Shown: positions 21,021-56,956, numbered from the stretch's first letter. The stretch is 64,000 nt of DNA from Bacteroidota bacterium (GCA_020846365.1 JADLEA010000197.1:9584-73583), one strand, 5' to 3'. Made by a program: numbers and translations. The notes: generated by a model not told the origin, from the letters alone.

Positions 21021-21049
21021 TTGACAACGGGAGATAGATGTCGTATAAT
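21021..21049 (+). promoter_or_regulatory. Consensus sigma70-type promoter: TTGACA, 17-nt spacer, TATAAT, upstream of the LacI-family regulator gene
   Basis: The sequence ttgacaacgggagatagatgtcgtataat is an exact match to both consensus hexamers with a 17-nt spacer. Confidence 0.5.
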
Positions 21050-21050
21050 A

Positions 21051-21070
21051 GCGCAAACGTTTGTGCGCAT
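21051..21070 (+). promoter_or_regulatory. LacI-family operator-like palindrome (TGCGCAAACGTTTGTGCGCA; core CAAACGTTTG) at the predicted transcription start of the LacI gene
   Basis: It has a perfect 10-bp palindrome core with extended, imperfect GCG/CGC arms. It resembles the PurR-type box ACGCAAACGTTTGCGT. It lies immediately downstream of the -10 hexamer. Confidence 0.4.
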
Positions 21071-21093
21071 TTGCCTGTAATCGGCTTGGAGGG

Positions 21094-22146: not shown

Positions 22147-22253
22147 CTCAAGACATATCCAGGACTAGTACCACCACGCATGTTTCTGAACGAATGCCCT
22201 TCGTCTCCAAAAATGTCCCTTTCATGCACAAACGATTGTGCAAAGGCACTTTG

Positions 22254-23624
22254 ATGAACATCCCCCCGCTCTCAGCGCATACCTGCTCGCTGCGCATCGC
22301 GCGCAACCTGCATCTTCTGCTCATCACGACCCTCATCACGGGAATGAGCATTCTCCTGCCCGCATGCGGAGGAAAGGAAGAAGACCGGTCGGGAAAGGTG
22401 GAGATCACCTTCTGGCACAGCCTGGTGTCTTCGACCGTGCCGGCGCTGCAGGACCTGATCAAGAAATTCGAGGAGGAGCATCCCGGTATCACCGTCAAAG
22501 CGCAATACGTGCCCACAGGGGATGCCCTGATCCAGAAGCTTGTCACCGCCGTGCACAGCAACACAGCTCCCGACGTCTCGTGGATCCACGCCAACTTTAT
22601 GCAGGATCTCATTGAAGCCGATGCGATCTATACCATGGAAGAGTTCATCCGCGGTCCGGACAGTCTCCCGCAGGCCGACCTCCAGGATATATACCCCGCC
22701 CTCATGGAGCAGGCGAAATGGCGCGGGGTGCTCTACAGCATGCCGATGGAGGCCACTGCGCTGGGACTTCTGTGCAATCGTGAGCTCTTCAGAAACGCAG
22801 GTTTGGATCCGGATCAGCCGCCCCGGGACTGGAACGAGCTTCGCGCGATGGCGCGCAAGCTCACGCTGGACAAGAACGGCGACGGAAAGTTCGAGCAGAT
22901 GGGCCTCTTCATCCCCATTTTCCCGTACTCCGGTCCGTACGGCGATTGGATGGTGTGGCAGTGGTATCCGTTCCTGTTCCAGGCGGGTGGAAATGTCATC
23001 ACCCTCGACCAGTCTCGCGTGTTGTTCGACAGTCCTGAGGCAATCACGGCGCTCACGCTCTGGAAAGAGATCTACAATGATCTCAACCTCTCCTCCTTTA
23101 CAATCGATTACGAGGTGGCCTTCGCTTCCAAAACGCTGGCGATGGCGATCGATGGCCCCTGGAATATTCCCCGGTGGAGGAAGATGAAGAATCTCGATTG
23201 GACGGTTGCCCCGCTGCCTGCGGGTCCTGCGCGCAACGCCACGGTTGCCGGCGGTGAGTATCTTTCCATCTTCAAGCAGAGCCGCCACCCGAAGGAGACC
23301 TGGATGTTTGTCAAATGGATGCTCCGGCCGGACGTGCAGGCGTTCTGGTCGATGCGATCGGGATATCTGCCGGTCCGCCATGCGGTCCGCTCGGTCAAGG
23401 AGTACAACGACTACCTGGAGACGGATCCCCCTTTGCGGGCCTATGTGGAATCAATGGAGTTCGCCGTTGCCCCGCGCCCGATCGACTACCACAGCCTGAG
23501 GATCAGCAGACACCTTGCCGAGGCGTTGGAGCAGGCAACGCTGGGGCGGAAGGACCCGGCGACGGTCCTGCGTCGCGCAGCGGCGGAATCCAATCGCCTG
23601 TTGGAATCAGTCGTCCGAAAGTAA
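22254..23624 (+). CDS. ABC transporter substrate-binding protein (carbohydrate, family 1), lipoprotein or secreted
   Basis: The signal or lipobox region is LLITTLITGMSILLPACGG. Family-1 solute-binding protein features follow (VEITFWHS..., KW...YSMPME...). The start is uncertain; 22194 and 22224 are also in frame. Confidence 0.75.
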   Translation: MNIPPLSAHTCSLRIARNLHLLLITTLITGMSILLPACGGKEEDRSGKVEITFWHSLVSSTVPALQDLIKKFEEEHPGITVKAQYVPTGDALIQKLVTAVHSNTAPDVSWIHANFMQDLIEADAIYTMEEFIRGPDSLPQADLQDIYPALMEQAKWRGVLYSMPMEATALGLLCNRELFRNAGLDPDQPPRDWNELRAMARKLTLDKNGDGKFEQMGLFIPIFPYSGPYGDWMVWQWYPFLFQAGGNVITLDQSRVLFDSPEAITALTLWKEIYNDLNLSSFTIDYEVAFASKTLAMAIDGPWNIPRWRKMKNLDWTVAPLPAGPARNATVAGGEYLSIFKQSRHPKETWMFVKWMLRPDVQAFWSMRSGYLPVRHAVRSVKEYNDYLETDPPLRAYVESMEFAVAPRPIDYHSLRISRHLAEALEQATLGRKDPATVLRRAAAESNRLLESVVRK

Positions 23625-23663
23625 GCATTTACACCAGGGAGAACGCGCATCACCGGTCACCAT

Positions 23664-24587
23664 ATGGTCAAAGCAACTCCACACGCCGATCAGCACCAGC
23701 AGTCCCGCCGCGCCCGGGAGCGAAAAGACATCATTGCGGGAGTGTTGTTTCTCTCCCCGACGCTACTGGTCTTCTCCCTGTTTGTCGTGTTCCCCGTCGT
23801 GTTCTCGTTCTTTCTGAGCTTCCACAAATGGAATATGTTCAGCGCGGAGCAGGCTTTTGTCGGGTTTGACAACTATGCGGCAATCCTTGTGAACCCGGAG
23901 TTCTGGTCCGTCCTTTCCAATACGGCTCTGTACACTCTGGGCACCGTCCCGCTCAATATGGTTATCGCTCTTGCCGCGGCTTACGTGTTGAACAAGAAGA
24001 TCATCGGCCGGCGGATTCTGCGCACCGCCTTTTTCCTTCCCGTCGTAATGTCTCCGGTCGCGGCTGCCGTCATCTGGCGGTGGGTGTACGAGCCGAACTT
24101 CGGCCTGCTCAATTACGGGTTGAGTGTGTTCGGTATCCCGTCTGTCAACTGGCTCAACGACCCGACGGCCGCGATGTTTGCGCTGATCCTGATGGGAGTT
24201 TGGAAATCCTTCGGTGTCAACCTGGTCCTGTTCTCCGCCGGCCTGCAGGGCATTCCGGAGCAGTACTACGAGGCGGCACAGATCGACGGCGCGGGGAAGG
24301 TGCGGCAGTTCTGGAACATCACGCTGCCGTTGCTCAGCCCGACGACATTCTTCATTCTTGTCATGTCGATCATCAGTTCGTTCCAGGTCTTCGACACAGT
24401 GTACGTGCTCACGTCCGGCGGACCGCTGGGTTCGACGAAGGTTCTGGTCTTCTACCTGTACGAAAACGCATTCAAGTACTTTGAAATGGGATACGCCTCC
24501 GCGGTGGCGTACCTGCTGTTTGCGATTGTCTTTGTCTTGACCCTCGTGCAGGTGAAGTACCTGCGCGGAAGCGTACACTACGGATAG
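23664..24587 (+). CDS. Carbohydrate ABC transporter permease (MalF/UgpA-like)
   Basis: It has 6-TM topology and the EAA-type loop region GIPEQYYEAAQIDGAG. Confidence 0.85.
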   Translation: MVKATPHADQHQQSRRARERKDIIAGVLFLSPTLLVFSLFVVFPVVFSFFLSFHKWNMFSAEQAFVGFDNYAAILVNPEFWSVLSNTALYTLGTVPLNMVIALAAAYVLNKKIIGRRILRTAFFLPVVMSPVAAAVIWRWVYEPNFGLLNYGLSVFGIPSVNWLNDPTAAMFALILMGVWKSFGVNLVLFSAGLQGIPEQYYEAAQIDGAGKVRQFWNITLPLLSPTTFFILVMSIISSFQVFDTVYVLTSGGPLGSTKVLVFYLYENAFKYFEMGYASAVAYLLFAIVFVLTLVQVKYLRGSVHYG

Positions 24588-24593
24588 GCGTAC

Positions 24594-25439
24594 ATGCCAG
24601 CAGCGAAAAAACGGACCGTGTTGACCCTCAGCGGAAGCGTGCTGCTGCACGTGGTGGTGTACGGGCTTGCGCTCGCGACCATTGCGCCGTTTCTCTGGAT
24701 GGTGCTGACATCGGTCAAGGATCTGCCGGAGATTCTGACCTATCCTCCCCGATGGATTCCCGAGCGGGCGACGCTGGACAATTTCGTGAATGCCTTCGAG
24801 GCCGCGCCGTTCGGACGGTACTACTTCAACAGCCTGTTTGTAGCATTCAGCGTGACCGCGGGCCAGCTAATCACCTGTTCGATGGCGGCGTATGCTTTCG
24901 CAAGGCTGCAGTTCCGGGGGAGGGATGTGCTGTTCTACCTCTTCCTCGGGACGATGATGATCCCCGGACAGGTCACGATGATTCCCAGCTTCATGGTGCT
25001 GCATTGGCTCGGGTGGGTTGACAGCTACTATGCGCTGATCGTTCCAGGGCTCGCGTCGGCGTTCGGGACCTTTCTGCTGCGCCAGTTCTTCCTTACGATT
25101 CCCCGTGATCTGGAGGATGCGGCGAGTCTGGACGGGTGCAGCAGATTCGGCGTGCTGTGGCGGATCATCCTTCCGCTCTCGCGGCCCGCCCTCGCCACCC
25201 TCGCGATCTTCACGTTCATGGGCGTGTTCAATGATTTTCTCTGGGCGTTGATTGTCGTCAGCTCTGACGAGATGAAAACGGTCCAGCTTGGACTCGCCAT
25301 TTTCCGGGACCGCTACCAGACGGATTGGGGGCAGCTTATGGCGGCGTCTGTGACAGCGACCCTGCCGATTATCATCGTGTTCTTTGCCGCCCAGAAGTAC
25401 TTCATCAGGGGGATCACGCTGAGCGGGATGAAAGACTAA
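24594..25439 (+). CDS. Carbohydrate ABC transporter permease (MalG/UgpE-like)
   Basis: It has the permease EAA motif region (PRDLEDAASLDGCSRFGVLWRIILP). It lies 7 nt after the preceding permease gene. Confidence 0.85.
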   Translation: MPAAKKRTVLTLSGSVLLHVVVYGLALATIAPFLWMVLTSVKDLPEILTYPPRWIPERATLDNFVNAFEAAPFGRYYFNSLFVAFSVTAGQLITCSMAAYAFARLQFRGRDVLFYLFLGTMMIPGQVTMIPSFMVLHWLGWVDSYYALIVPGLASAFGTFLLRQFFLTIPRDLEDAASLDGCSRFGVLWRIILPLSRPALATLAIFTFMGVFNDFLWALIVVSSDEMKTVQLGLAIFRDRYQTDWGQLMAASVTATLPIIIVFFAAQKYFIRGITLSGMKD

Positions 25440-25465
25440 TGTTCCATTCTCAGGAAGAGAGAGCC

Positions 25466-26434
25466 ATGAAGCGCAAGAATCTGGAATCGACGGCGTCGCT
25501 GACGCTGTTCCTCCTGGCGTTCCTCCTGATGGGGGGATGTGCCTCTGACGAGGACACGGCCCTCGCGCCGTACACCGAACGTCCCACACGGCTGTCGAAG
25601 GTGGCAATACAGGACAGCACGTTCACGCCGAAGGTCACCTGGGTAGGCGGGTACGTGGCGGCATTCGGCGTCAACACCGGTTCCCGAGCGGCGCTGGATG
25701 CCTCGCTTGCCTGGCTGGTTGCGCAGAGCGGCAACACGCTCCGCTATCCCATCACCATCGGACAGCTCCCGTCAGGTGCGCAGGATCTGACGGCACAGTT
25801 CGGAGGCACGCCCCGGTCCCAGTTGACGGAAGACTCCACGTACACGTACTGGGTGATGACCGCCGATGCGTGGGATCTGGTGCGCCAGCTGCCGGAGGCC
25901 TCGCGGAGGACGCTTACAGTGGACACCTCCGCCACCGCCATCGTCCAGTCGCGCAACGACACCGCCTTTGTCCGGGCTGCAAGCTGCGCGATCATGACCC
26001 GCCGGACCGACGTGTTTATCAACATCGACGACTTCCGCCCTTATGGGAGGCTGGCGACGCTGGGACTGATACACACCGGCACGTCGAACAACCCGACGAT
26101 CACATGGCAGATCCGGGATGCGGGAGTCGACACGGCGATCTCCGCCATCGGCATTGTGCGGGGCCAGACGTATGAAGTCGCCAATGTGGTCTGGGAAATG
26201 ATCTCCGCCATCGAGCTTCCCGATACGACGATCTACTGGGTGAACAATGTCATCAGGGGCCCGATCGTGGCCGGGACGCAACTCCCGAACACCCAGACCT
26301 TCACGGAATACCCGGCGGGCGGGCTCGAACGCGGGTACAGCTACATGCTCTGGATCGCCAATAAGGATTGGGACCGCGAAGGGAGGCTTCGCTCCACGCC
26401 GAACTATGCGTACGCGCTTTTCACTGTCTGGTGA
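25466..26434 (+). CDS. Hypothetical lipoprotein with an internal two-fold repeat; last gene of the ABC transporter cassette
   Basis: The lipobox is LLAFLLMGGCASDED. An AGGAAGAGAGAG ribosome-binding site is present. Two homologous halves end in ...YTYWVMTADAWD and ...YSYMLWIANKDWD. No recognisable catalytic motif was found. Confidence 0.55.
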   Translation: MKRKNLESTASLTLFLLAFLLMGGCASDEDTALAPYTERPTRLSKVAIQDSTFTPKVTWVGGYVAAFGVNTGSRAALDASLAWLVAQSGNTLRYPITIGQLPSGAQDLTAQFGGTPRSQLTEDSTYTYWVMTADAWDLVRQLPEASRRTLTVDTSATAIVQSRNDTAFVRAASCAIMTRRTDVFINIDDFRPYGRLATLGLIHTGTSNNPTITWQIRDAGVDTAISAIGIVRGQTYEVANVVWEMISAIELPDTTIYWVNNVIRGPIVAGTQLPNTQTFTEYPAGGLERGYSYMLWIANKDWDREGRLRSTPNYAYALFTVW

Positions 26435-26552: not shown

Positions 26553-28532
26553 ATGAAAAGACAACTTCTGCTTCTGCTGGTGGCCCTCACGGTTGTGGCG
26601 ATGGGAGCGTTTGCGCAGGACTACCAGCGCAAGGTGGTGGATGTACCGAAAGTGGACCCTACCGCAATCACGATCGACGGGGTGATGGACGAAGCGGCCT
26701 GGAACACCGCAGCGAGGGCGAACCTTGTGACCTCGACGGGTTTTGACATGTTTGCGTACTACTACGGGCGCGAGCTGGCCGAGCCGGATTTTGATGAGTA
26801 TGTCGGTCGCATGCTGTGGGCACAGGACACGTTGTTCGTCTTCATACACATCGACGAAATGGTCAATGATTCCACGGACCTCTACTGGCGCGGCAAATGG
26901 TCTGCCGATCAGCTGTTCGTGAGCATCTCCAGCCGGTTGGGCATTGACATGAAAGGATGGTATGACGGGAACGTGTACGCTGCGCCGGACGGACCCTACC
27001 ATTTCCTGATCCTTGCCGATAGCGTCACGCTGAACAACACGGAAGTCACGGGGATACCGGATGAATTCATGCGCTTCCCCGAGGACACGCAGCGCGTATT
27101 CCAGGCGTCGGACGTGGCGCGCTGGGGCATCGCCATCAATCCGACCACCGGCGTGTGGGATGTCGAAATGGCTATCTACAACCCCCATATCGCGGCCGGC
27201 AGCTCGATCGGCTTCAACATCGGGGGGAGCGTGGGTTCGACGAAGGGATTCGAGGCTGACTCCGATGCCTACGCGTACTACACCTGGCAGCCAAGCGTCA
27301 TCGATTCCCCCTACGCCCAGCCGCCGAACGTGCCCATTCCCTCGTGGGGCACGGATCCCGGCTCGTACAACCTCGCCACGTCAGTCACCTGGGCAATACT
27401 GCAGTTCACTCCGGGCATGGATGATCTCTACCTCCGGAGGCAGGTGGACGTGCCGCGGGTTGCGCCCGAGGCAATCACCAGCGATGGTCAGATGACGGAA
27501 CCGGAATGGACGGACGCGGCTACAGCGGAGATGGCTTCGCCGACCGGCTTCGATATGTTCGCGTATTACTATGGGCGCGAACTGGCCGAACCGGATTTCG
27601 ACGAACTCACCGGCCGGTTGCTGTGGTCGAAGGAAACCCTGTATGTCTTCATGCACATCGATGAGATCGTCAACGACTCGACCGACCTCTACTGGCGCGG
27701 GAAATGGTCCGCAGACCAGCTGTTCATCAGCCTGTCGAACCGGCTGGGCATCGATATGAAGGGCTGGTACGACGGCAACGTCTACGCGGCGCCGGACGGA
27801 CCGTATCACTTCCTCGTGCTGGCTGACAGCGTCACGCTGAACAATACCGAAGTCACCGGGATTCCGGATGAGTTCATGCTGACGGAGACCGATACCCAGC
27901 GGGTCTTCTATGCATCGGATGTGGCGCGTTCGGCGATCACGATCAATCCAACGACGGGCGTGTGGGATGTCGAAATGGCCATCTACAATCCCAACGTGAA
28001 CCTGGGCACCAGAATAGGGTTCAACGTGGGCGGCAGCGTCGGTTCGACGTATGCATTCGATGCCGATAGTGACGCATATGCCTACTGGACATGGCAGCCG
28101 AGTGTGCTCGACTCTCCGTACGCGCAGCCCCCGAATGTTCCCGTACCGTCGTGGGGAACGGATCCCGGCTCCTACAACCTTGCGACATCCGTCACGTGGG
28201 CCGTTCTCAACTTCAAGGCGACAACCGGCCCGTCCGACGTTTCCGACATGGGAACCGGAATTCCGGCGGCCTACGCGTTGAGCCAGAACTACCCCAATCC
28301 GTTCAACCCATCCACCCGGATCCGGTTTGCTCTTCCCCAATCCGGCCTGGTCACCCTCACCGTGCATAATCTGCTCGGACAGGAGGTCGCCCGGCTTGCG
28401 AATGAAGTCCGTGCGGCGGGTTCGCATGAGGTATCGTGGAATGCCAAAAACCTGGCAACCGGCCTGTATTTCTACCGGCTGAAGGTGGATAACCGCGTAA
28501 TCGAAACGAAGAAGATGGTTCTCCTTAAGTAG
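26553..28532 (+). CDS. Secreted T9SS cargo protein with two tandem CBM9-like carbohydrate-binding modules
   Basis: It has a signal peptide and an AGGAGG ribosome-binding site. Two ~265-aa modules, each beginning VDVP(K/R)V.P.AIT.DG.M.E..W (a CBM9-type opening), are about 80 % identical. The C-terminal tail is ...LSQNYPNPFNPSTRIRFALP...LTVHNLLGQEV...GLYFYRL...KKMVLLK. Confidence 0.7.
   Translation: MKRQLLLLLVALTVVAMGAFAQDYQRKVVDVPKVDPTAITIDGVMDEAAWNTAARANLVTSTGFDMFAYYYGRELAEPDFDEYVGRMLWAQDTLFVFIHIDEMVNDSTDLYWRGKWSADQLFVSISSRLGIDMKGWYDGNVYAAPDGPYHFLILADSVTLNNTEVTGIPDEFMRFPEDTQRVFQASDVARWGIAINPTTGVWDVEMAIYNPHIAAGSSIGFNIGGSVGSTKGFEADSDAYAYYTWQPSVIDSPYAQPPNVPIPSWGTDPGSYNLATSVTWAILQFTPGMDDLYLRRQVDVPRVAPEAITSDGQMTEPEWTDAATAEMASPTGFDMFAYYYGRELAEPDFDELTGRLLWSKETLYVFMHIDEIVNDSTDLYWRGKWSADQLFISLSNRLGIDMKGWYDGNVYAAPDGPYHFLVLADSVTLNNTEVTGIPDEFMLTETDTQRVFYASDVARSAITINPTTGVWDVEMAIYNPNVNLGTRIGFNVGGSVGSTYAFDADSDAYAYWTWQPSVLDSPYAQPPNVPVPSWGTDPGSYNLATSVTWAVLNFKATTGPSDVSDMGTGIPAAYALSQNYPNPFNPSTRIRFALPQSGLVTLTVHNLLGQEVARLANEVRAAGSHEVSWNAKNLATGLYFYRLKVDNRVIETKKMVLLK
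26630..28230 (+). repeat. Tandem in-frame duplication of about 800 bp (two copies, about 26630-27420 and about 27440-28230) encoding the CBM9-like modules
   Basis: The protein-level repeat is obvious (FDMFAYYYGRELAEPDFDE...DSTDLYWRGKWSADQLF... occurs twice). The boundaries are approximate. Confidence 0.8.
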
Positions 28533-28728: not shown

Positions 28729-29691
28729 ATGACAAAGATGATGACAGTAGCTCTTCTCCAGGGGCCCCACCGCTTCTCGCTGGAAGAGCGTCCCATTCCC
28801 GTCCCCGGTCCGGATGAGATCCTTGTCCGGACGACATCCTGCGGGATTTGCACGTCAGAGATAGAAATCTGGAAGGGAAAGCTTCCCGATCTGGAATACC
28901 CCCGGTTCATCGGTCATGAACCATCCGGAATCGTGGAACATGCAGGCGCTGAGGTCAGCGGATTCGCTCCCGGTGATCATGTGGCCGTCTGGTCGGAAGG
29001 GAAAGCGTACGCTGAATACTTTGTATCGAAGGCCGACTACGCCTTCAGGCTCCGTCACGAGACAAACCTGGAGGAGGCGCTCGGAGAGCCCATCGCGTGC
29101 TCGGTAAATGGCGTGCGCAAGCTAGATCCCCAGCTCAATGATAGCGTGTGCATCGTAGGGTGCGGGTTCATGGGGCTCATCATGGTTCAGATCTTCCGGG
29201 CGCGGGGAGCGGGCACCGTCATCGCCGTCGACACCCGGAAGAGCATCCGGGATCTCTCGCTGCGGCTGGGTGCGACTCACGCGATGGACCCGGCAGAGAC
29301 GGACGTAGCCGCTGCGGTGAAGGACCTCACAGGCGGGCGCGGCGTGGATATTGGTGTGGAGGCGGCCGGCCTTCAGGCGACGCTCGACCTCACGGGGCAG
29401 GTCGTCCGCATGGAAGGGAAACTGGAGGTCTTCGGTTTTCACGTCGGCGAACCCCGCGCGGTACCATGGGGATTCTGGAACTGGATGGCATTCACCATCG
29501 TGAACGGCCCTGTGCGCAGTCCGCGCATGTACGTCGAGGGCATGACCACCGGGTTGACGATGCTCGAAGCGGGAACGTTGAAGATGGGGCCGCTGGTCAC
29601 ACACCGGTTCCCCCTTCGAGAGATCGATCGCGCATTCCAGGTCGCGGCTGCGAAAGACGAAGGTTTTGTCAAAGGCATCATCACGGAGTGA
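28729..29691 (+). CDS. Zinc-dependent alcohol dehydrogenase family (MDR) oxidoreductase
   Basis: The catalytic-zinc region is CGICTSE...GHEPSGIVEHAG. The Rossmann motif is VGCGFMGL. Confidence 0.8.
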   Translation: MTKMMTVALLQGPHRFSLEERPIPVPGPDEILVRTTSCGICTSEIEIWKGKLPDLEYPRFIGHEPSGIVEHAGAEVSGFAPGDHVAVWSEGKAYAEYFVSKADYAFRLRHETNLEEALGEPIACSVNGVRKLDPQLNDSVCIVGCGFMGLIMVQIFRARGAGTVIAVDTRKSIRDLSLRLGATHAMDPAETDVAAAVKDLTGGRGVDIGVEAAGLQATLDLTGQVVRMEGKLEVFGFHVGEPRAVPWGFWNWMAFTIVNGPVRSPRMYVEGMTTGLTMLEAGTLKMGPLVTHRFPLREIDRAFQVAAAKDEGFVKGIITE

Positions 29692-29753: not shown

Positions 29754-32624
29754 ATGGATCGATCGCCGAGAATTGTGGCTCTCACCGTTCTCGTGCTGGC
29801 GTTCTCCGCGCTGGTCTTTCTCCCGGGTACTCCCGCGGCCAGGGCACAGGGCAACACCGGGAAGATTTCGGGAAGGGTCAGCGACGCGAAGACCAGAGAG
29901 CCCCTGGTCGGAGTGAACGTCCTCGTCCAGGGCACCAGCCGCGGAGGGGCGACGGATGTGCAGGGCGACTTCTTCATCGCCAACCTCCCGCCGGGCGTGT
30001 ACGTGTTAAAAGCCCGGCAGGTGGGGTACAGGGACGTCACGGTGACCGACGTCCGCGTGCGCGTGGATGCGACCACGGAGGTGAATTTCGCAATGGAGGA
30101 GACGGTCCTGGATATCGGCCAGGAGGTGGTCATCACGGCACAACGGCCGCCGGTGCAAAAGGATAATACTGCCACCCGCGTGTTTATCGAATCCAGCGAC
30201 ATCATCAACCGCCCCGCCACCGGCGTCTCGGAAGTGGTGACGACGCTGCCGAGCATCAACTTCGAAGGGGGCGGCGTCAGAGTGCGCGGAGGAGCCCTGA
30301 ATGAAGTGTCATTCCTGGTGGACGGCGCGCGGGCAAGGAATCCGATGAACCAGGAGGCGTACACCAACATCAACCTGAGCTCCATTCAGGAATTGGAGGT
30401 CATCACGGGCTCGTTCAATGCCGAGTACGGCGAAGCCCGTTCGGGGGTTTTCAACGTCATTACGAAAGAGGGAGGCGATCAATACCAGTTCTACCTCGAT
30501 GCACGCTACACTCCTCCGGGAGTGAAACACTGGGGACCTTCCCTCTATGACACCGAAACCCCCGTCTACTGGGAAAACTCGCACGCCCGGCATCTCCAGT
30601 GGTGGATCGACAACCCGGATCAATGGGTGGATGCGGCAGGCAGATACGGCAACGACCCCAACTGCGCGCTGTCGCCCGAACAGGCCCACCAGGAATACCT
30701 CTCAACCCATCAGCCGCTCACAGAGTACGACAAGATTCCCAGCTACCTCGCAGAGGCCAGCTTCGGAGGTCCCGTGCCGGGCGTCGATGCCATGCGCTTC
30801 TTTGTGTCCGGAAAGTACCGGAGCGAAGCGCCGTTGATGGGGAACGCCTATCGCGACAGGGGGACCTTCTTTGACGGCACCGCCAAGCTCTCGTACAATC
30901 TCGACGCCGGCACCAAGATCCTGCTCTCGGGATTCCTCGGTACGGAACGGACATCCTGGGGCGTGGACTGGTACAACATCGATGACTGGGCACGGAACAT
31001 GGCCCTCGATTCACGGTATGCGTACATGGATTACTATGGCCTTCCCACGTCGCAAACCGACGGGCAGAGCCTCAAGCTCACCCACGTCGTCGATGAGGCC
31101 ACCATGTGGGAGGTGAAAGTCTCCCGCGTGTTTGCTCTCCGGCGCGTGGAGCCGTTCCCGGACGACCCGATCGGATGGGAAGCCACGGAAGCGACACGGG
31201 ACAATCTGCGGGGGTACGAAACATACGTCGACGCTTCCGGGCAGTCGTATGTCCGTGATGCCATCGGCGGCAATCAGAACAGGGTGGGCTTCCATACGCT
31301 CGGCTACTACTACAGGTTCGACAGTAAGAACACCGACTGGACGCTCTCCGGTTTTTATTCGAGCCAGATCAACAAGAACTGGCAGCTGAAATCCGGCGCA
31401 GAGTTCACCTACTACGTGCTGGATCAGTACAATGAGTCCAAACTGCCTCCCCGGACCGACGACAATACGTACAATCCGTTCCAGGGCGCAGTGTACGTAC
31501 AGAACAAACTGGAATTCGGCGGGTTCGTCATGAATGCCGGCATCCGCCTGGATTTCTACAATCCCAATGATGTCACGTATCTCGACCTCTTCGATCCACT
31601 CGGCGGCGCGACCGGCACAACCAAGATGTTTGCGCAGGTCAGCCCCCGTCTGGGCATCTCCCATCCCATCGACGAAAACACCGTCCTTCATTTTTCCTAC
31701 GGCCACTTTTTCGAGCGGGGTCCGTTCGGTGACTACGGGGAAGGCACGGATGATTCTGAGGCGCTGGGGAGCCTCACGTCCTTCATCGTCACAGGCACGG
31801 CCAGCCCATGGGTGCTCGGGAACCGGAACACAAAGCCCGAGAAGACCGTCTCCTACGAGCTCGGCATTGAGCGGAACTTCTTTGATGAGTTCATTCTCGG
31901 CGTGACCGCATACTACAAAGACATCCGGAACACCCTCCGCGTCGTGACAATTGAGAGCCCCATCGGGATCTACCGGACCAACGGCAACGGGAACTACGGA
32001 GATGTGCGGGGGATCGAGCTCTCCCTCCGGAAGCAACCGACCAGGCACAGCTGGGGGACCATGTGGGGGTATGTCAATTTCACCACCCAGATCGGCATCT
32101 ATGGCCGTGGCGGCGATCCGCTCTCCATCTCCCCAACGCGCGTCACCTATGGCACCAGCGGGGATGACATCGCCTACAACAACCCGCGTCTGAAGGCCGG
32201 TCTCTACTACGAAACGCCCGAGTCGCAGTTCCTGGGAGGCGCCTTTGACAACCTCAGCGTGTCCTTTGACTACATCGCGGTGTTTCCGAATGAGAAACTC
32301 CTCGGGGACGCCTTCGAGAACGGCGGGAACCGGTATCTGCGCCCCGTTGACCAGAACACCAACATGAAAGTCCGCAAGGATTTTGTGATCGCAGGTGCCT
32401 CGATGCGGGTGGGGGTCTACATGGAGGTGCGGAATCTCTTCAACGCCAGAATGCTGAACTTCCCGACGTTCACCGGCGCATCCACGGAAGACCAGGCACG
32501 CTTCGCGACGAGCGGATTCAGCTACATCCCATCCGTGACAGCCACGGGTGCTCCGATACTGGAATTCGCGAAGTACAGAAATCTCCCCCGCCTGATTGTG
32601 TTCGGCGCAACGCTCGAATTGTGA
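29754..32624 (+). CDS. TonB-dependent outer membrane receptor with an N-terminal carboxypeptidase-regulatory-like domain
   Basis: A signal peptide is present (MDRSPRIVALTVLVLAFSALVFLPGTPAARAQG). A CarbopepD_reg-like beta-sandwich (GKISGRVSDAKTREPLVGVNVLV...) precedes a plug region (VRVRGGALNEVSFLVDG) and a large beta-barrel with a C-terminal Phe region. The upstream part of the ORF-finder frame (29148-29753) overlaps the ADH gene in another frame and is not coding. Confidence 0.75.
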   Translation: MDRSPRIVALTVLVLAFSALVFLPGTPAARAQGNTGKISGRVSDAKTREPLVGVNVLVQGTSRGGATDVQGDFFIANLPPGVYVLKARQVGYRDVTVTDVRVRVDATTEVNFAMEETVLDIGQEVVITAQRPPVQKDNTATRVFIESSDIINRPATGVSEVVTTLPSINFEGGGVRVRGGALNEVSFLVDGARARNPMNQEAYTNINLSSIQELEVITGSFNAEYGEARSGVFNVITKEGGDQYQFYLDARYTPPGVKHWGPSLYDTETPVYWENSHARHLQWWIDNPDQWVDAAGRYGNDPNCALSPEQAHQEYLSTHQPLTEYDKIPSYLAEASFGGPVPGVDAMRFFVSGKYRSEAPLMGNAYRDRGTFFDGTAKLSYNLDAGTKILLSGFLGTERTSWGVDWYNIDDWARNMALDSRYAYMDYYGLPTSQTDGQSLKLTHVVDEATMWEVKVSRVFALRRVEPFPDDPIGWEATEATRDNLRGYETYVDASGQSYVRDAIGGNQNRVGFHTLGYYYRFDSKNTDWTLSGFYSSQINKNWQLKSGAEFTYYVLDQYNESKLPPRTDDNTYNPFQGAVYVQNKLEFGGFVMNAGIRLDFYNPNDVTYLDLFDPLGGATGTTKMFAQVSPRLGISHPIDENTVLHFSYGHFFERGPFGDYGEGTDDSEALGSLTSFIVTGTASPWVLGNRNTKPEKTVSYELGIERNFFDEFILGVTAYYKDIRNTLRVVTIESPIGIYRTNGNGNYGDVRGIELSLRKQPTRHSWGTMWGYVNFTTQIGIYGRGGDPLSISPTRVTYGTSGDDIAYNNPRLKAGLYYETPESQFLGGAFDNLSVSFDYIAVFPNEKLLGDAFENGGNRYLRPVDQNTNMKVRKDFVIAGASMRVGVYMEVRNLFNARMLNFPTFTGASTEDQARFATSGFSYIPSVTATGAPILEFAKYRNLPRLIVFGATLEL

Positions 32625-32643
32625 GACCATGGAGAATAGAACC

Positions 32644-34854
32644 ATGAGAGTAGACCGGATTACCCCTGCATGGATCCTCCTTGCATTGCTCGCAATCTTC
32701 CCCGGCATCGCGATGAGCCAGCCGGGCGCCGAACTGCAGCATACGAGGGGACGGCTATGGGAGAATCTTGTGAACGACGGGATGATCGGAAGTCTTGCAG
32801 CGTGGGATTTCGAGGTGTATGCCCCGCTCGGGTTCTTCCCGGGATTTGCAGGATGGACCCATCCGATCGGCAACGAGAACAAGGCCGTCAACACTTTCTC
32901 CAATGCGAACTTCCACAATTTCCGTTCGGGGTGCTGGATCGTGGCGAAAGATGTGATCACGGTTGGCCAGCCGCCCACCTACCTGCAGGCGCCGCACGCG
33001 TTCGAGAGTTCGACGACCGGTTTGCAGGATGGTTCGTACGGGCTGGAGAACGCGCTTCAACCTCTGGTGAGAGTGGAGAATTTCAGCGATCGACCCGGTT
33101 TCGATCCGCTCCTGCCGGAAGAGTTGATTACGGCGCAGTGGAACACCAATCTGGGCATTACGGTGACCCGGCGCTCCTACACATGGAGTTTCCCCGGATA
33201 CAGGGACTTCATCATCTACGACTACGTCTTCAGGAACACCGGTCTCATCGTCTGCACATACACGAGCGCTCTTCCGCCTGATTCTCTGCTCCCCCGGTTC
33301 CGCCAGACCATCAAGGACGCGTATTTCGTCTTCCACTCGGGCATCTCCGTCTCCACCAAGAGCCAGATCAACTTCTATGACGACGTCTATGCGATCATGG
33401 CGGGCGGATTCGGATGGGATCAGAAAGCGTATCACGACTACTACCATATTCATGACGATGGGGAGCTGGTCTTCTCGACGAACTTCGACGGCGGCAAGTA
33501 TCCGCCTCACTTCAATACCTATGCCGAGAAGACCCCCTCGGAATGGCAGACGCGATTCGGTTCGGAGCTTATGAGCCCGTCCGCCTTCGGATGGGTTGCA
33601 TTGTATGCAAGCCCCAGGACTGGCGGCGGACCCCGGCTCACGCCAAAGCCGGATGTGTTGCGCGTGGATTCCCATAAAGGGGGAAAGCTGAACAACCAGT
33701 CCTTGGACCTCGAGAAGTTTGTCCATTTGATGCGCGGCCACCGAGATTTCTACACATTCGCGACGACCGCCGACACGCAGGCGGCGCTTGGTAACTCCGG
33801 TAACAGGGAGAATTTCTACACCTTCTCCTACGGACCGTACACGATTGCGCCGGGGGATTCTGTCCGGGTGATTGTGGGGGAGATCGCCGGCGTCATGGAC
33901 ATGCACGAAGCTATCAACGGGGATCCCCAGGGGCACTTCCCGGACAGCTCGATTGCCGCAATCCGGAGAAACGCGGCTTTTGCGCGTCAGGCGGTGGCTT
34001 GGGGAGTGGGCGGCACAGCCGGCGGCATGCCGATTGCCGCGGACGTCCCCGAACCTCCGCCTCCGCCCACGTGTGACGCGGTGAATGCATCCTTCGGCAC
34101 CGACGTCCCCATCATCTCGGTCGTGTGGGAGAAACAGGCCGAAACGGCGCAGATCCTTGATGCGTCGGGGCAAACCTTCTACTCCGGTGCAACGGACCTT
34201 GCAGGGTACCGGATTTACCGTTCCACGGATTTCCAGTACTCCAGCGAAAGTGAACTCCCCGCTTTTCGCGGGGAGGCATGGGAACTCGTCGGAGACATCC
34301 CCATTGGCACTGCCCCCCAGTACTTTGACACTCAGGAAGGGCGATACCGCTACAACGACAGCACCGTGACCTTCGGATTCCGGTATGGCTACTACGTCTC
34401 GGCATATCGGAGCGCAAATCCGGCCAAGACTTGGACGTCGGCGAACGGCACGGTTATTACCGGCATCCCCGAGCTCGAGAGCGGAAGCGTGAACAAGACG
34501 CTCCCGACGAGTGCGGCACCCGGGCCTGTCCCCACGATGGACATTTTCGTTGCTCCGAATCCCTACGTGTACGGCGACCCGGAACGGAGCTTCGGACGTG
34601 CCAACCCCTTCGGTCTGGAGTTCCGGAACCTGCCCGAAGCGTGCACGATCAAGATCTACACGCTCGTCGGTGACCTGGTCCGGACTCTGGAACACAAGCC
34701 CGACGCCCGGGGCGGTGTGTACGGCAGCGAAGGGTGGGATAAAAAAAGCGACTCCGGTCTGCTTGTGGCTCCCGGACTGTACGTGTACCACGTCATTTCC
34801 ACGACGCCGGGACTGGACCGCACGCTGACCGGCAAACTCGTGATCATCCGCTGA
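32644..34854 (+). CDS. Hypothetical secreted protein (736 aa) with a C-terminal divergent T9SS-like / FlgD-Ig-like sorting domain
   Basis: A signal peptide is present (MRVDRITPAWILLALLAIFPGIAMSQ). The last ~110 aa (FVAPNPYVYGDP...CTIKIYTLVGDLVRTLEH...GLYVYHVIS...GKLVIIR) follow the beta-sandwich pattern of T9SS C-terminal domains. No catalytic motif was recognised in the N-terminal 600 aa. Confidence 0.55.
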   Translation: MRVDRITPAWILLALLAIFPGIAMSQPGAELQHTRGRLWENLVNDGMIGSLAAWDFEVYAPLGFFPGFAGWTHPIGNENKAVNTFSNANFHNFRSGCWIVAKDVITVGQPPTYLQAPHAFESSTTGLQDGSYGLENALQPLVRVENFSDRPGFDPLLPEELITAQWNTNLGITVTRRSYTWSFPGYRDFIIYDYVFRNTGLIVCTYTSALPPDSLLPRFRQTIKDAYFVFHSGISVSTKSQINFYDDVYAIMAGGFGWDQKAYHDYYHIHDDGELVFSTNFDGGKYPPHFNTYAEKTPSEWQTRFGSELMSPSAFGWVALYASPRTGGGPRLTPKPDVLRVDSHKGGKLNNQSLDLEKFVHLMRGHRDFYTFATTADTQAALGNSGNRENFYTFSYGPYTIAPGDSVRVIVGEIAGVMDMHEAINGDPQGHFPDSSIAAIRRNAAFARQAVAWGVGGTAGGMPIAADVPEPPPPPTCDAVNASFGTDVPIISVVWEKQAETAQILDASGQTFYSGATDLAGYRIYRSTDFQYSSESELPAFRGEAWELVGDIPIGTAPQYFDTQEGRYRYNDSTVTFGFRYGYYVSAYRSANPAKTWTSANGTVITGIPELESGSVNKTLPTSAAPGPVPTMDIFVAPNPYVYGDPERSFGRANPFGLEFRNLPEACTIKIYTLVGDLVRTLEHKPDARGGVYGSEGWDKKSDSGLLVAPGLYVYHVISTTPGLDRTLTGKLVIIR

Positions 34855-34865
34855 GGAGAGTACCC

Positions 34866-35849
34866 ATGAAACGACATCTGGCACTATGCGCATGTGTCCT
34901 TGCCCTGGGTACGAGTGGTGCTCTCGGCGAGGATTTCAACAAAGCTGGCCGGACTGTGATGCAGTTTTTGAAGATCGGCATCGGCGGGCATCAATCCGCG
35001 CTCGGAGAGTGCGGCGTGGTGGCGGTCCGCGACGTGAACTCCATGTTCTGGAACCCCGCAGGCATATCGGGCATCCAAAACGTTGAGGCCTCGTTCTCCT
35101 ATAACAACTGGTTTGTCGACTTGAAGTATTTAGCCGGCGCGGCCGGCGTCCGGATTCCCGACGTCGGCATTGTCAGCGTTGGGTTCGCCTCCCTGGACTA
35201 CGGCAACATCCAGGAAGCGCTTGTCCGCGGCCAGGGAACTTCCAGCGACACGCGCACGGGCGGAACGTTCGGCGGGGGAGACATGATGGTGAGTCTCAGC
35301 TTCGCACGAGAGTTCAGCGATCAGCTGGCCATCGGTCTCACCGGCAAATATGTTCGCGAAAAGCTCTTCAACTATTCGGCCGGTGCATTCGCCTTCGATG
35401 TGGGAACGTACTACAACACGGGTTTCAAGGGGATCCGGTTCGGCATGAGCTTCCAGAATTTCAGCGAATCGGTCAAGTTCCTCGATCAGGGCGCGAGAGA
35501 GGAAGGGTACGACCTCCCGCTGGTCTTCCGGCTGGGGGCATCCTTTGATCTCGTGGAAGAGAAAGACGGCTTCATCCCTCTGGGAGATGATCATCGGGTA
35601 GTCATGTCCTTTGAAGCGCTGAATACGAACGACTTCGGCGAACGCTATCACGTGGGCGCGGAATACTCCTTCATGGACTTCATCCATCTCAGAGGGGGAT
35701 ATCGCTTCAACTACGCCGAAGGGAACCTTTCGTTCGGCGTCGGCCTGCAGAAACAACTTTCGTCCATCTTCGTTTCGGTCGACTATTCGTTCGTCAGTTA
35801 CGAGTTTCTCGAATCTCCTCACCGTGTCACGCTGACCGTCGCCTTCTGA
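34866..35849 (+). CDS. Outer membrane beta-barrel protein of the PorV/PorQ/FadL-like family
   Basis: A signal peptide is present (MKRHLALCACVLALGTSGALG). The N-terminal FLKIGIGGHQSALGECGVVAVRDVNSMFWNPAGIS matches the FL.IG.GARA.GMGGA..A..DDA.A..WNPAG motif of PorV/PorQ/FadL-like barrels. Alternating beta-strand patterns run to a C-terminal aromatic residue. Confidence 0.5.
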   Translation: MKRHLALCACVLALGTSGALGEDFNKAGRTVMQFLKIGIGGHQSALGECGVVAVRDVNSMFWNPAGISGIQNVEASFSYNNWFVDLKYLAGAAGVRIPDVGIVSVGFASLDYGNIQEALVRGQGTSSDTRTGGTFGGGDMMVSLSFAREFSDQLAIGLTGKYVREKLFNYSAGAFAFDVGTYYNTGFKGIRFGMSFQNFSESVKFLDQGAREEGYDLPLVFRLGASFDLVEEKDGFIPLGDDHRVVMSFEALNTNDFGERYHVGAEYSFMDFIHLRGGYRFNYAEGNLSFGVGLQKQLSSIFVSVDYSFVSYEFLESPHRVTLTVAF

Positions 35850-38900: not shown

Positions 38901-39198
38901 GCAGGTGCCCGAGCGATATTGTAACGGACGGCTCCAGCTGGAGGTACCATGCGGCCAGGATGTGCTCGAAGTTCTTGTCAACGACGCGCCCGCACCTCTG
39001 GTTCCATGGAGCCCGTACGCGGTAGACCTCACAGGTCTCGTGCGGCCGGGGATCAATCGGCTGGAGTTGCGCGTCACCAACACGCTGATCAATCTTCTGG
39101 AGGGTGTCAGAAAGGAATCGGGTGTTCTTGCCCGTCCCTCTCTCCGCCATTTCCACAACTACGAACTCCCGGTACATAGGACGAAGGGCGACGCATGA
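35905..39198 (+). CDS. Large glycoside hydrolase (about 1100 aa): N-terminal TIM-barrel of GH106-like type with C-terminal galactose-binding-like beta-sandwich domains
   Basis: The N-terminal pattern IIPFWFWNGDMDEQEMMWQLKEYKAKGIDAIFIH resembles rhamnosidase-type (GH106-like) barrels. The C-terminus has a jelly-roll like GH2 sugar-binding domains (SLWYRTSF...RLFVNGTEIV...GRNVIAVAL). An AGAGG ribosome-binding site lies 9 nt before ATG 35905; the ORF-finder start at 35896 is TTG. No signal peptide is evident. Confidence 0.6.
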   Translation: MAFAEHVRNGVPLTRENFAEPPGSMGIIPFWFWNGDMDEQEMMWQLKEYKAKGIDAIFIHGRFGLTVPYVSDAWFEKVKAAVNMAKSIGIDAWVYDEMNWPSGTAQRKVPTRYPHLRQKYLELVALNVDGPLFTFLEATDNRYVNTGDSWPVAAFGCTEEEFQTAITHPIDLTQNLSFEKVLPWEAPAGKWRLLYFLQKEIPYYIDTLNPESTQRFIELTHERYRQAVGGHFGGTVPGFYTDEPAMHYYHVGIDNYVIPWTSQMFKIFRERRGYDLRPWLPALYLDMGPRTASVRYDFWRTLTEQYAETYYGQIREWCDRNNVLFTGHLLFEEWMRMHARCEGNIFRYLEKMHIVGVDHLYPKIGTEQEPDQHVALKLASSAAHHFGSARLLCESMGGSYWDCTLQRMKWMANWEYVLGVNLFNNHGYHYSIEGERKRDWPPSQFYHHTWWKHYPAFTSYMARISHLLSGGRHVAKVLVLYPLNSIWANYVPQKRTEVGNLTEFDFNYLTDTLLRLHYDFDFVDEDVLAEATIGKGGIGIRDEKFEVLILPPVTHMKGSTLKVIRKFIRAGGTVIADTLLPVELLETPRPDATREVQEIFGVDPRKLLAEFSAKGPVRVAVQSKNSTGHVHLLRGKGLHHGTGRKQLEQVLRKSCVPDVTISEGDVFYLHRVKDGFDIYFLANTSQEEKRNVRVTFEKIGTPELWDPNTGAIHPLHQFEIAQGRPALVLDFAPADARVIVLRKKIDAPYVSDANITVTGVSATAVQGYGNPAGKTARAVLVNGRQRIRLTSPARKPLPPVLLPQKWEFRCDGDNALLLSQWRMSMVGGFGMECAEAAPDIDDTSWLSVTQGAWEMQLPQERDEMTYPVSLWYRTSFEAEYIPSDLRVMIDGFSGSAYRLFVNGTEIVDKGKRSTLDAEIKEVPIARHVRQGRNVIAVALTARKRTDGMLDPLKLVGAFSLKPVQHGLSISRPAESMRVGDWCMQGYPFFSGTGRYIADVQVPERYCNGRLQLEVPCGQDVLEVLVNDAPAPLVPWSPYAVDLTGLVRPGINRLELRVTNTLINLLEGVRKESGVLARPSLRHFHNYELPVHRTKGDA

Positions 39199-40115
39199 AG
39201 CGCCAGGCATGCATTGTCGTAGGCAGTGCCAACATGGACCTTGTGGTGACCACGGACCGGTTTCCGTTCCCTGGGGAGACCATCATGGGACACACGTTCA
39301 CCGCCATTCCGGGGGGCAAAGGAGCGAACCAGGCGGTGTGTTGCGGCAAACTCGGTGGCAGGGTGGAATTCATGGGGAAGATGGGGAACGACCGGTTCTG
39401 CGACCAGCTCCGGAAGAGCATGAAGCACGATGGGGTAAAGCTCGGGCACGCGCTGACTGACCCCCGGCACTCCACAGGGATCGCCATGATTACCGTGGAC
39501 GCGTCAGGCCAGAATGAGATCGTGGTGATTCCCGGGAGCAACATGGCATTGACTCCGGGCGACATTGACGCGCACCGGTGCGTGTTCGAGCGCGGCGGGG
39601 TCCTCCTGCTCCAGCTTGAAATCCCACTGCGGACCGTCAGCCGGGCCGCGACGCTGGCGAAGCACGAAGGGCTCCGTGTCATCCTGAACCCGGCGCCGGC
39701 GCGGGTTCTTCCGGATTCGCTGTTGCGCTGCGTGGATATCCTCACCCCGAATGAAATTGAGGCGGAGATTCTGACGGGAGTGAAGGTGAACTCGCTTCGG
39801 GCCGCAGAAAAGGTCGCGCGCCTTCTTCTGGGACGCGGTGTTGGCAGCGTGGTGGTCACGCTGGGTGCGAAGGGAAGTCTTCATGTGCAGCACAAGGGCG
39901 CGCGCCTCTATCCGGCAAAACGGGTGCATGCCGTTGACACGACGGCCGCCGGCGACGCATTTAACGGCGCACTCGCCTTTGCGCTCTCGGCAGGTCGGGA
40001 GGTGGAAGAGGCGATACCGTTTGCCAATGACGTCGCCTCGCTCTCCGTCACGCGGTTCGGCGCCCAGTGCTCCATGCCTACGCTTGCGGAAGTCGAGCGT
40101 TTTCGCCGGAAATGA
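39195..40115 (+). CDS. rbsK: Ribokinase (PfkB family)
   Basis: The N-terminal VVGSANMDLV...GGKGANQA is typical. The C-terminal DTTAAGDAFNGALA carries the anion-hole/GAGD motif. The start overlaps the upstream stop (ATGA). Confidence 0.85.
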   Translation: MKRQACIVVGSANMDLVVTTDRFPFPGETIMGHTFTAIPGGKGANQAVCCGKLGGRVEFMGKMGNDRFCDQLRKSMKHDGVKLGHALTDPRHSTGIAMITVDASGQNEIVVIPGSNMALTPGDIDAHRCVFERGGVLLLQLEIPLRTVSRAATLAKHEGLRVILNPAPARVLPDSLLRCVDILTPNEIEAEILTGVKVNSLRAAEKVARLLLGRGVGSVVVTLGAKGSLHVQHKGARLYPAKRVHAVDTTAAGDAFNGALAFALSAGREVEEAIPFANDVASLSVTRFGAQCSMPTLAEVERFRRK

Positions 40116-53606: not shown

Positions 53607-53652
53607 TCAATGGGCAATGGATAATGGAAAACATGAAGGACAAACAGACCCT

Positions 53653-55332: not shown

Positions 55333-55359
55333 TTTGAAAAACGATCGGAGACTCAAGAT

Positions 55360-56949: not shown

Positions 56950-56956
56950 GGACCCC

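Follow-up and report, generated by a model that had tools for sequence, protein, structure and literature searches.

Organization of the three-gene cluster

The subject of the current work is a cluster of three adjacent genes, here named g1, g2 and g3, which is located on a 64,000-nt stretch of DNA from a Bacteroidota bacterium (GCA_020846365.1 JADLEA010000197.1:9584-73583), referred to as the window, the coordinates of which are used throughout. These genes encode, in this order, a TonB-dependent receptor, a secreted protein belonging to an unannotated superfamily, and an outer membrane beta-barrel of the PorV/PorQ family (Table 1); for homologous loci the corresponding products are designated T (the g1 receptor), X (g2) and P (the g3 barrel), with T-X-P denoting the gene order. 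The trio is a tight operon: open reading frames (ORFs), their translations and the DNA itself place the three genes in the same orientation on the + strand, separated by intergenic gaps of 19 and 11 nt, as had been indicated by an initial annotation of the window. A Shine-Dalgarno-like GGAG sequence precedes each of the three genes, no convincing terminators were found within the trio (the counts obtained in promoter and terminator scans being not above the shuffled expectation), and no paralogues of g1, g2 or g3 are present elsewhere in the window, the G+C content of which is ~60%.

The identification of g1 as a plug-containing TonB-dependent receptor, which formed part of the same annotation, is borne out by its domain layout (Table 1): behind the signal peptide lie a CarboxypepD_reg-like N-terminal extension, a TonB-box-like sequence and the plug domain, and then a barrel which matches OMP_b-brl_3 (PF14905; 39.4 bits, with a cutoff of 27). 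Assignment of this receptor to the SusC/RagA type was rejected, since its score with the corresponding model TIGR04056 (83.5 bits, covering the N-terminal third alone) is far below the cutoff of 368.25 and since the protein encoded downstream does not match SusD. PDB sequence matches of g1 are limited to the plug domain (YncD, PqqU) and the N-terminal extension.

The product of g3 had been described as a barrel carrying a PorV/PorQ/FadL-type N-terminal motif, of which the PorV/PorQ affiliation stands: the protein is clearly above the cutoff of the PorV/PorQ family model NF033709 (Table 1). Its identification as an orthologue of PorV, PorQ or PorV2 was rejected, with scores far below the respective equivalog cutoffs (NF033710, 80 versus 250; NF033711, 100 versus 220; NF052325, 43.5 versus 325). 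The FadL/OMPP1/TodX model PF03349 was likewise not passed (15.1 bits, with a cutoff of 29.7), a weak match to Toluene_X was obtained, and no match to PorP/SprF (TIGR03519, PF11751) was detected at E<=1. An AlphaFold2 model of g3, generated from 40 homologues, contains 14 strands (pLDDT 80.5), and the best PDB structures retrieved with it by Foldseek are those of PorV of F. johnsoniae (8gl6_F, E 3e-15, TMq 0.69; 6h3i_F, E 3.4e-12), after which FadL, TodX and TbuX are ranked. The same PorV (6h3i_F, E 2e-7) is also the sole PDB sequence match of g3, and entry 8gl6 represents a type IX secretion system (T9SS) complex which was assembled with the C-terminal domain (CTD) of RemA as substrate and which contains PorV.

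The middle protein and its C-terminal tail

The initial annotation described g2 as a secreted protein without a recognizable catalytic motif, and the family and fold searches performed are in line with this description. No Pfam or NCBIfam family was matched above threshold, weak matches to FlgD_ig and to the C-terminal end of the PorU model being the only ones obtained (residues 652-734), and a profile search of the PDB with the X family returned nothing beyond a marginal FlgD match. An NCBI metagenome-assembled genome (MAG) labelled Bacteroidetes bacterium encodes a 'hypothetical protein' with 100% identity to g2, and paralogues are named 'Fibronectin type-III domain-containing protein' in UniProt. 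The g2 signal peptide is of type I, and a lipobox is missing from g2 as well as from 76 of 80 members of the X family, so that retention at the cell surface would require an anchor other than a lipid.

Prediction of the g2 structure by AlphaFold2 (pLDDT 85.5, pTM 0.84) generated a model consisting of three parts, these being a beta-supersandwich body, an FN3/Ig-like domain and a C-terminal beta-sandwich (Table 1). The best PDB structures retrieved by Foldseek are phosphorylases of the GH94, GH65 and GH15 types (GH standing for glycoside hydrolase) and the polysaccharide lyase 5no8 (E 6e-7 to 1e-4, TMq ~0.2), with PorU also being among the matches. As we read the model, the element common to g2 and the GH94/GH65/GH15-type enzymes would be a single domain, the N-terminal supersandwich of the latter, which we take to be non-catalytic; an (alpha/alpha)6 or TIM catalytic domain was found neither in the AlphaFold2 model nor by Foldseek. 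Residues that are invariant over 41 diverse X paralogues comprise Gly, Pro, Tyr and a single Asp, they include no catalytic pair, and none of the acidic or basic supersandwich residues is among them. Within the orthogroup of g2, many Asp, Glu, His, Arg and Lys residues are invariant (e.g. H91, E159, E160, D193, H231, K239, R340, D342 and D419). Being all-beta in its predicted fold, with a supersandwich of the kind present in carbohydrate-active enzymes and no catalytic domain, X looks like a binding protein.

Three other proteins encoded in the window, namely an S8 peptidase (26-2809), the protein encoded at 26553-28532 and an alpha-amylase (59693-62152), carry canonical type A tails of the T9SS, which share the pattern YPNPFNP...G.YFYRL...KK[LM]VLL[KR]. 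The C-terminus of g2, which reads ...APNPYVYGDPERSFGRANPFGLEFRNLPEACTIKIY..GDLV...APGLYVYHV...TGKLVIIR, presents the corresponding motifs in the same order (PNP, then G.Y, then a K-hydrophobic-K/R motif at the extreme C-terminus) and differs from the canonical window tails by an insertion of ~10 residues following PNP. The tail of g2 was correctly described as resembling, and clearly diverging from, those of the three window proteins: when 52 canonical tails of type A, drawn from the same genomes, were aligned by hhalign with an X-tail profile, a probability of 98% (E 1.9e-13, 79 columns) was obtained, and the canonical models TIGR04183 and PF18962 matched neither g2 (E<=1) nor any of 40 family members (E<=0.01). 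Because of this profile-profile homology, the X tail is assigned, from sequence comparison, to the type A CTD class as a divergent member.

The consensus of the X tail across the superfamily includes NLP..C.IRI[YF]..GDLV and ends in TGK[LF][MV]II[RK]. Among the 40 relatives, the CTD part of the PorU model was matched by 39, that of the PorZ model by 27 and FlgD_ig by 27, the type B model TIGR04131 was matched neither by g2 nor by any relative, and the type B model CHU_C (PF13585) gave weak matches with two (best E 6.6e-4) and no match with g2. A designation of this region as a 'PorU/PorZ-type tail', considered as evidence for retention, was downgraded, given that the canonical window tail which was tested also matches the PorU model.

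Recurrence and co-diversification of the trio

Homologues of X with 53-85% identity occur in MAGs labelled Ignavibacteriales, Caldithrix, Marinimicrobia and Rhodothermales/Rubrivirga. A genome scan, in which a gene map was generated for each locus, retrieved 41 orthologous loci from Ignavibacteriota, KSB1, Calditrichota, Rhodothermales, Kryptoniota and Neomarinimicrobiota. In this set the genes for T, X and P are adjoining and co-oriented wherever the contig provides room, with a single exception. This exception (L013 6824-13054), located in a MAG of the Calditrichaceae, has X positioned between a LacI gene and GH92 fragments, without receptor or barrel; the same MAG contains a normal T-X-P copy, split over two contigs (L033 and L041), and L013 represents either a rearrangement or an assembly chimera. 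At another locus (L036 4986-10188) several overlapping reading frames take the place of intact receptor and X genes, which we suspect to reflect sequencing frameshifts rather than pseudogenes.

HMMER searching with the X family, carried out exhaustively, retrieved 5294 cluster representatives at E<=1e-3, the weakest of which may have no more than the FN3 and tail part in common with it; with E<=1e-10 the number fell to 1395 (from clusters at 50% identity), and with E<=1e-30 to 43. Among the full-length matches listed, only two representatives belong to the orthogroup, the others being paralogues of 600-850 aa which share both the N- and C-terminal halves. The genomic contexts of such paralogues, obtained by exact look-up and by a metagenome scan with a narrower paralogue alignment, display the same T-X-P order even where X is distant (22-46% identity), and their sources include Fidelibacterota/Marinimicrobia (among them a complete 3.1-Mb genome), Handelsmanbacteria, WOR-3 and Stahlbacteria. 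In total, 66 complete trios were recovered, distributed over 12 X clusters (below ~40% identity) and at least eight named lineages, all with the same gene order and orientation, and in some cases two modules are present on one contig (L050 and L084; L061). Synteny of the trio elsewhere, on which the initial annotation had made its proposal depend together with matches to T9SS-associated models, is thus documented for both orthologous loci and paralogous modules; of such models, that of the PorV/PorQ family is passed by the barrel, and the tail is related to type A tails at the level of profiles.

All 66 receptors of the complete trios carry the CarboxypepD_reg-like N-terminal extension. Sampled receptors of paralogous modules present similar motifs after this extension (EVVVLAQRP, EIVVTATRP, EVRVTAEKP), the strict pattern being matched in only 20. 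The paralogous P proteins examined behaved as g3 did: 10 of 10 pass NF033709 (144-187 bits) and none reaches the cutoff of PorV, PorQ or PorV2, while a single paralogous P scored 19 bits with PorP/SprF, the cutoff of which is 90.55. Pairwise distances are strongly correlated between the three proteins (Mantel r 0.98 for T-X, 0.97 for X-P and 0.98 for T-P, with none of 2000 permutations reaching values as high), including among distant pairs (r 0.85-0.91). Because of this correlation T, X and P appear, from the sequences compared, to duplicate and diverge as a unit.

The neighbours of the trio are in all cases catabolic or import genes, both in the window and in the paralogous modules. In five of the latter, a gene for a DUF6785/DUF6784 protein of ~650-680 aa follows P (L042 4938-6965, L043 7736-9691, L047 7561-9588, L054 8598-10649 and L095 9327-11357), mostly directly, with a short leucine-rich repeat gene being interposed in L043; this membrane protein may be an inner-membrane partner of the modules concerned. 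Elsewhere, P is followed by GDPD and ceramidase-like genes, or by an esterase gene. With such varied genes downstream of P, the trio looks like a portable outer-membrane step.

Further arrangements were observed in which X is not part of a complete trio. In a common type of marine paralogue locus (L068 8229-13884), T-X-P is followed by genes for a GDPD phosphodiesterase and a neutral-ceramidase-like protein, and then by a second X without receptor or barrel, the tail of which weakly matches the type B model CHU_C (E 1e-4); the same layout occurs in L064, L069, L073, L075-L079, L088-L090, L094, L096, L104, L119 and L125. Tandem X-X copies without T or P are present in L074, L101 and L103. In the complete Fidelibacterota genome CP070787.1 an X-P pair (L046 5527-9220) has no full-length receptor alongside, and an upstream gene of 140 aa, which was matched in the receptor search, possibly encodes an isolated domain resembling the N-terminal extension.

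Proposed function and its alternatives

The arrangement is consistent with a TonB-dependent uptake unit in which a capture protein, X, is delivered by the T9SS and held at the surface by its uncleaved tail on a dedicated PorV-like barrel, a reading to which we assign a probability of roughly 55%. According to this reading, g1 would act as the TonB-energized transporter, and X would be exported by Sec, upon which its C-terminal tail would direct it to the T9SS for passage through the outer membrane. This tail would remain uncleaved and docked on the private barrel P, in the way in which the tail of PorZ is bound by PorQ and that of PorU by PorV, both of which stay uncleaved (PMC10202324). Docking would then position the beta-supersandwich and FN3 body of X at the cell surface beside g1, to which X would pass the substrate it has captured. 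X would in that case be a functional counterpart of SusD, of surface glycan-binding proteins or of BtuG lipoproteins, unrelated to these and anchored by a barrel instead of a lipid. Precedents for the individual steps include the proposal, made in a review, that cognate PorV-like barrels shield tails from cleavage (PMC10202324), entry 8gl6, in which PorV forms part of a T9SS complex to which a CTD substrate is bound, and BamG, a FadL-like 14-strand barrel the loops of which hold the surface protein BamH (PMC12578637). The 'surface capture and import module' with an uncharacterized middle component, suggested in the initial annotation, is in agreement with all of the evidence assembled and is supported by it.

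Several observations weigh against this proposal. A correlation of distances is expected of any operon that is inherited as a unit and does not prove a physical interaction, contact between X, P and T being proposed from synteny and analogy only. Some copies of X are without their own T and P, namely the marine tandem or second copies, L013, and L046, in which P is present and a full-length receptor is not. The PorU/PorZ tail matches are non-discriminating for the reason given above, and the failure of the X tail with the curated models TIGR04183 and PF18962 implies that its recognition by the T9SS is not assured. T9SS core genes are not found in the 64-kb window; considering that canonical T9SS cargo is encoded there, the system is probably present in the source organism. 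Finally, the many invariant charged residues of the X orthogroup are compatible with an enzymatic role.

These residues are central to an explanation in which X, as a member of a new fold family, would act enzymatically at the surface (e.g. as a glycan depolymerase or lyase) and cut the polymer for the receptor, with P still serving as its anchor. The Foldseek match to the polysaccharide lyase 5no8 and to supersandwich domains associated with glycoside hydrolases, together with the very high conservation of X across phyla (53-85%), may be read in the same manner. We nevertheless regard such a role as fairly unlikely, given that X has no (alpha/alpha)6 or TIM catalytic domain and that the domain which it shares with the GH94, GH65 and GH15 enzymes is presumably non-catalytic, that the supersandwich has no acidic or basic residue common to all of the diverse paralogues, and that a separate protein of the locus, which carries a canonical T9SS tail, could be the surface enzyme. 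Alternatively, X and P may constitute an ordinary cargo and its dedicated shuttle, in which case the tail would be cut by PorU, X would be linked to lipopolysaccharide or released, and no stable complex of X, P and T would exist. Homology of the X tail to type A tails fits this account, since cleavage is the default fate of such tails (PMC10202324). It is considered unlikely because a transient and generic shuttle would not need a P for each module which diverges in step with X and T, and because the X tail falls outside the canonical tail models and is more uniform over the superfamily than a mere export signal requires.

The remaining alternatives find less room in the evidence. If P were a channel of the FadL type, serving a hydrophobic or amphipathic portion of the substrate, and X not a substrate of the T9SS, the likeness of its tail to type A tails would reflect no more than a shared Ig-like fold; the FadL/TodX fold of P and its weak Toluene_X match agree with such a channel, and the GDPD and ceramidase-like genes that follow the abundant marine paralogue module suggest lipid-derived substrates. 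Against this, P passes the PorV/PorQ model and fails that of FadL, its structural match to PorV is well ahead of that to FadL, sequence motifs, and not the fold alone, are common to the X tail and type A tails, and glycan catabolism is the context of the window locus, which together make this scenario improbable. The notion that adjacency merely reflects incidental operon packing of three independent proteins, which may be entertained because some X copies occur without T or P and because the interaction of the three proteins is one that we only infer, appears effectively excluded by the synteny of the 66 complete trios, with their constant order and orientation over 12 divergent clusters and at least eight named lineages.

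Relation to known systems

With the SusC/SusD (RagA/RagB) systems of Bacteroidota, utilisomes included, the trio shares a receptor bearing a CarboxypepD_reg-like extension and a TonB-box-like motif, an accessory surface-protein gene directly following that of the receptor, and a regulated glycan locus with glycoside hydrolases and an inner-membrane importer. It differs from them in that g1 fails TIGR04056, in that X is all-beta, without SusD match and not a lipoprotein, and in the addition of a PorV-like barrel. PorZ-PorQ and PorU-PorV provide the closest counterpart for X and P, each consisting of a CTD protein and a barrel of the PorV/PorQ family, and X tails match the CTD parts of PorU and PorZ; in contrast to these pairs, P remains under the PorV, PorQ and PorV2 cutoffs, X has neither the PorU peptidase nor a PorZ-like body, and the X-P pair is encoded beside a TonB-dependent receptor with which it co-diversifies, several modules per contig being possible.

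The initial annotation had compared the trio to pairs of type B CTD cargo and PorP/SprF partners (such as SprB-SprF). The analogy holds as regards a dedicated barrel, encoded directly downstream of its cargo and present once per cargo, and PorP/SprF proteins are grouped with PorV-like barrels in a review (PMC10202324). The assignment itself does not hold, since the tail is type-A-like and does not match TIGR04131 (weak CHU_C matches being confined to two of 40 relatives and one second-copy X), g3 does not match PorP/SprF, and a gliding-adhesin context is missing, so that PorZ-PorQ and PorU-PorV are closer. Correspondingly, of the model searches which that annotation had recommended, the PorV/PorQ family model was passed, and TIGR04183, TIGR04131, TIGR03519, PorV proper and FadL were not.

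A non-SusD surface protein in complex with a classical TonB-dependent transporter, as the trio would comprise, is represented by BtuB-BtuG (PMC10404256), one of the lipoprotein-capped TonB-dependent transporters of Bacteroides, and a FadL-like 14-strand barrel which holds a surface protein by BamG-BamH; in these systems the partners are lipoproteins or BAM components, and none combines a T9SS tail with a PorV-family barrel. The parts of the trio are thus of known kinds, and the combination T-X-P and the X superfamily were not found described in the literature searched, the coverage of which was incomplete; a 2026 review of glycoside transporters makes no mention of PorV or the T9SS.

What is known of TonB-dependent uptake with a surface partner comes for the most part from Bacteroidia, namely from SusCD and the lipoprotein systems related to it. 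The lineages which bear the trio (among them SAR406/Marinimicrobia, Ignavibacteriota, Calditrichota, Rhodothermales and Kryptoniota) occur in abundance in oceans, sediments, soils and hot springs; hardly any of their members has been cultured, and their capture of polymers at the cell surface is little understood. We tentatively propose, at somewhat less than even odds, that T-X-P represents a third general architecture for TonB-dependent capture besides classical receptors and SusCD-type systems, in which a T9SS substrate serves as the lid or capture protein, permanently docked by its uncleaved tail on a private PorV-family barrel. If this is true, the architecture would extend to Marinimicrobia, Ignavibacteriota, Calditrichota, Rhodothermales, Kryptoniota, KSB1, WOR-3 and Handelsmanbacteria, and the T9SS and the many unexplained PorV/PorQ paralogues would participate in the assembly of uptake machines. 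Should the uptake unit proposed above be correct, the X family would mark the uptake loci of the trio-bearing lineages as susD marks polysaccharide utilization loci, thereby allowing prediction of substrate loci in metagenomes, a function would be assigned to the dedicated PorV/PorQ paralogues, and the role of the T9SS would extend from secretion and gliding to the building of import machines.

The surrounding sugar-utilization locus

The trio is the core of a sugar-utilization locus of ~20 kb (21061-42145; Table 1), the gene order of which is conserved as a whole, at 50-84% amino acid identity, across phylum-level lineages. The conserved order is binding protein, two permeases, the 369-aa ORF (hyp369, not invariably), canonical-tail protein, Zn-dehydrogenase, T, X, P, GH106-like enzyme, ribokinase-family kinase and GH39-like enzyme, the latter resembling PslG, and further glycoside hydrolases, including one of family GH92, are encoded nearby.

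Table 1 Features of the trio and the surrounding locus (window coordinates)
Feature	Position	Strand	Evidence and remarks
LacI regulator, ABC (ATP-binding cassette) sugar-binding protein, two permeases	21061-25439	+	Pfam; binding protein and permeases syntenic, 53-84% identity
369-aa ORF (hyp369), between ABC permease and canonical-tail protein	25325-26434		No family match; 36-49% identity, several orthologous loci
659-aa protein with canonical type A T9SS tail	26553-28532	+	TIGR04183, 38.6 bits (cutoff 23); upstream of the trio in most orthologous loci
Zn-dependent alcohol/polyol dehydrogenase	28729-29691	+	ADH_N and ADH_zinc_N; 51-72% identity, always directly upstream of g1 in orthologous loci
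g1 (T), TonB-dependent receptor, 956 aa	29754-32624	+	Signal peptide (aa 1-32), N-terminal extension, TonB-box-like motif, plug, barrel
g1, CarboxypepD_reg-like N-terminal extension, aa 38-126	29865-30131	+	Pfam CarboxypepD_reg, 66.6 bits, above cutoff
g1, TonB-box-like motif QEVVITA, aa 123-129	30120-30140	+	By inspection of the sequence; N-terminal to the plug
g1, plug domain, aa 136-229	30159-30440	+	PF07715, 41.6 bits (cutoff 23.9)
g2 (X), secreted non-lipoprotein, 736 aa	32644-34854	+	Unannotated superfamily
g2, N-terminal all-beta body, ~aa 29-468	32728-34047	+	AlphaFold2: beta-supersandwich; long helix (434-454) at its end, PEPPPPP linker
g2, FN3/Ig-like domain, ~aa 477-625	34072-34518	+	AlphaFold2 strands
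g2, C-terminal beta-sandwich, ~aa 630-736	34531-34851	+	Divergent type-A-like T9SS CTD; sandwich at ~aa 655-736 in the AlphaFold2 model
g3 (P), PorV/PorQ-family 14-strand outer-membrane barrel, 327 aa	34866-35849	+	NF033709, 190.9 bits (cutoff 90)
GH106-like glycoside hydrolase, 1097 aa	35905-39198	+	PF17132, 155 bits; PDB GH106 rhamnosidases 6q2f (E 1e-29) and 5mqm; directly downstream of g3 in orthologous loci
Ribokinase-family sugar kinase	39195-40115	+	TIGR02152, 353 bits (cutoff 299.65); syntenic

The N-terminal ~570 aa of the protein encoded at 26553-28532 matched nothing in Pfam, NCBIfam or the PDB, and this protein is a candidate for the role of surface enzyme in this locus. The GH106-like enzyme has no evident signal peptide and is, for this reason, probably cytoplasmic. 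In the proposed reading, the protein with the canonical T9SS tail would act at the surface together with T-X-P at the outer membrane, upon which the ABC importer would carry the product across the inner membrane, and the GH106-like and GH39-like enzymes, the ribokinase-family kinase and the Zn-dehydrogenase would process it. Judging from the families encoded, the genes for the GH106-like enzyme, the PslG-like GH39, the nearby GH92 and the ribokinase-family kinase hint at a glycan with rhamnose, mannose or pentose units.

A perfect sigma-70 consensus (TTGACA and TATAAT with a spacing of 17 nt; 12 of 12 positions) is located at 21021-21049, 12 nt upstream of the start of the LacI-family gene at 21061, in a region where the number of promoter-like sequences is not above that of shuffled sequences. 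In another part of the window (53434-58606), three consecutive genes each encode a divergent GH10-like domain (49-67 bits).

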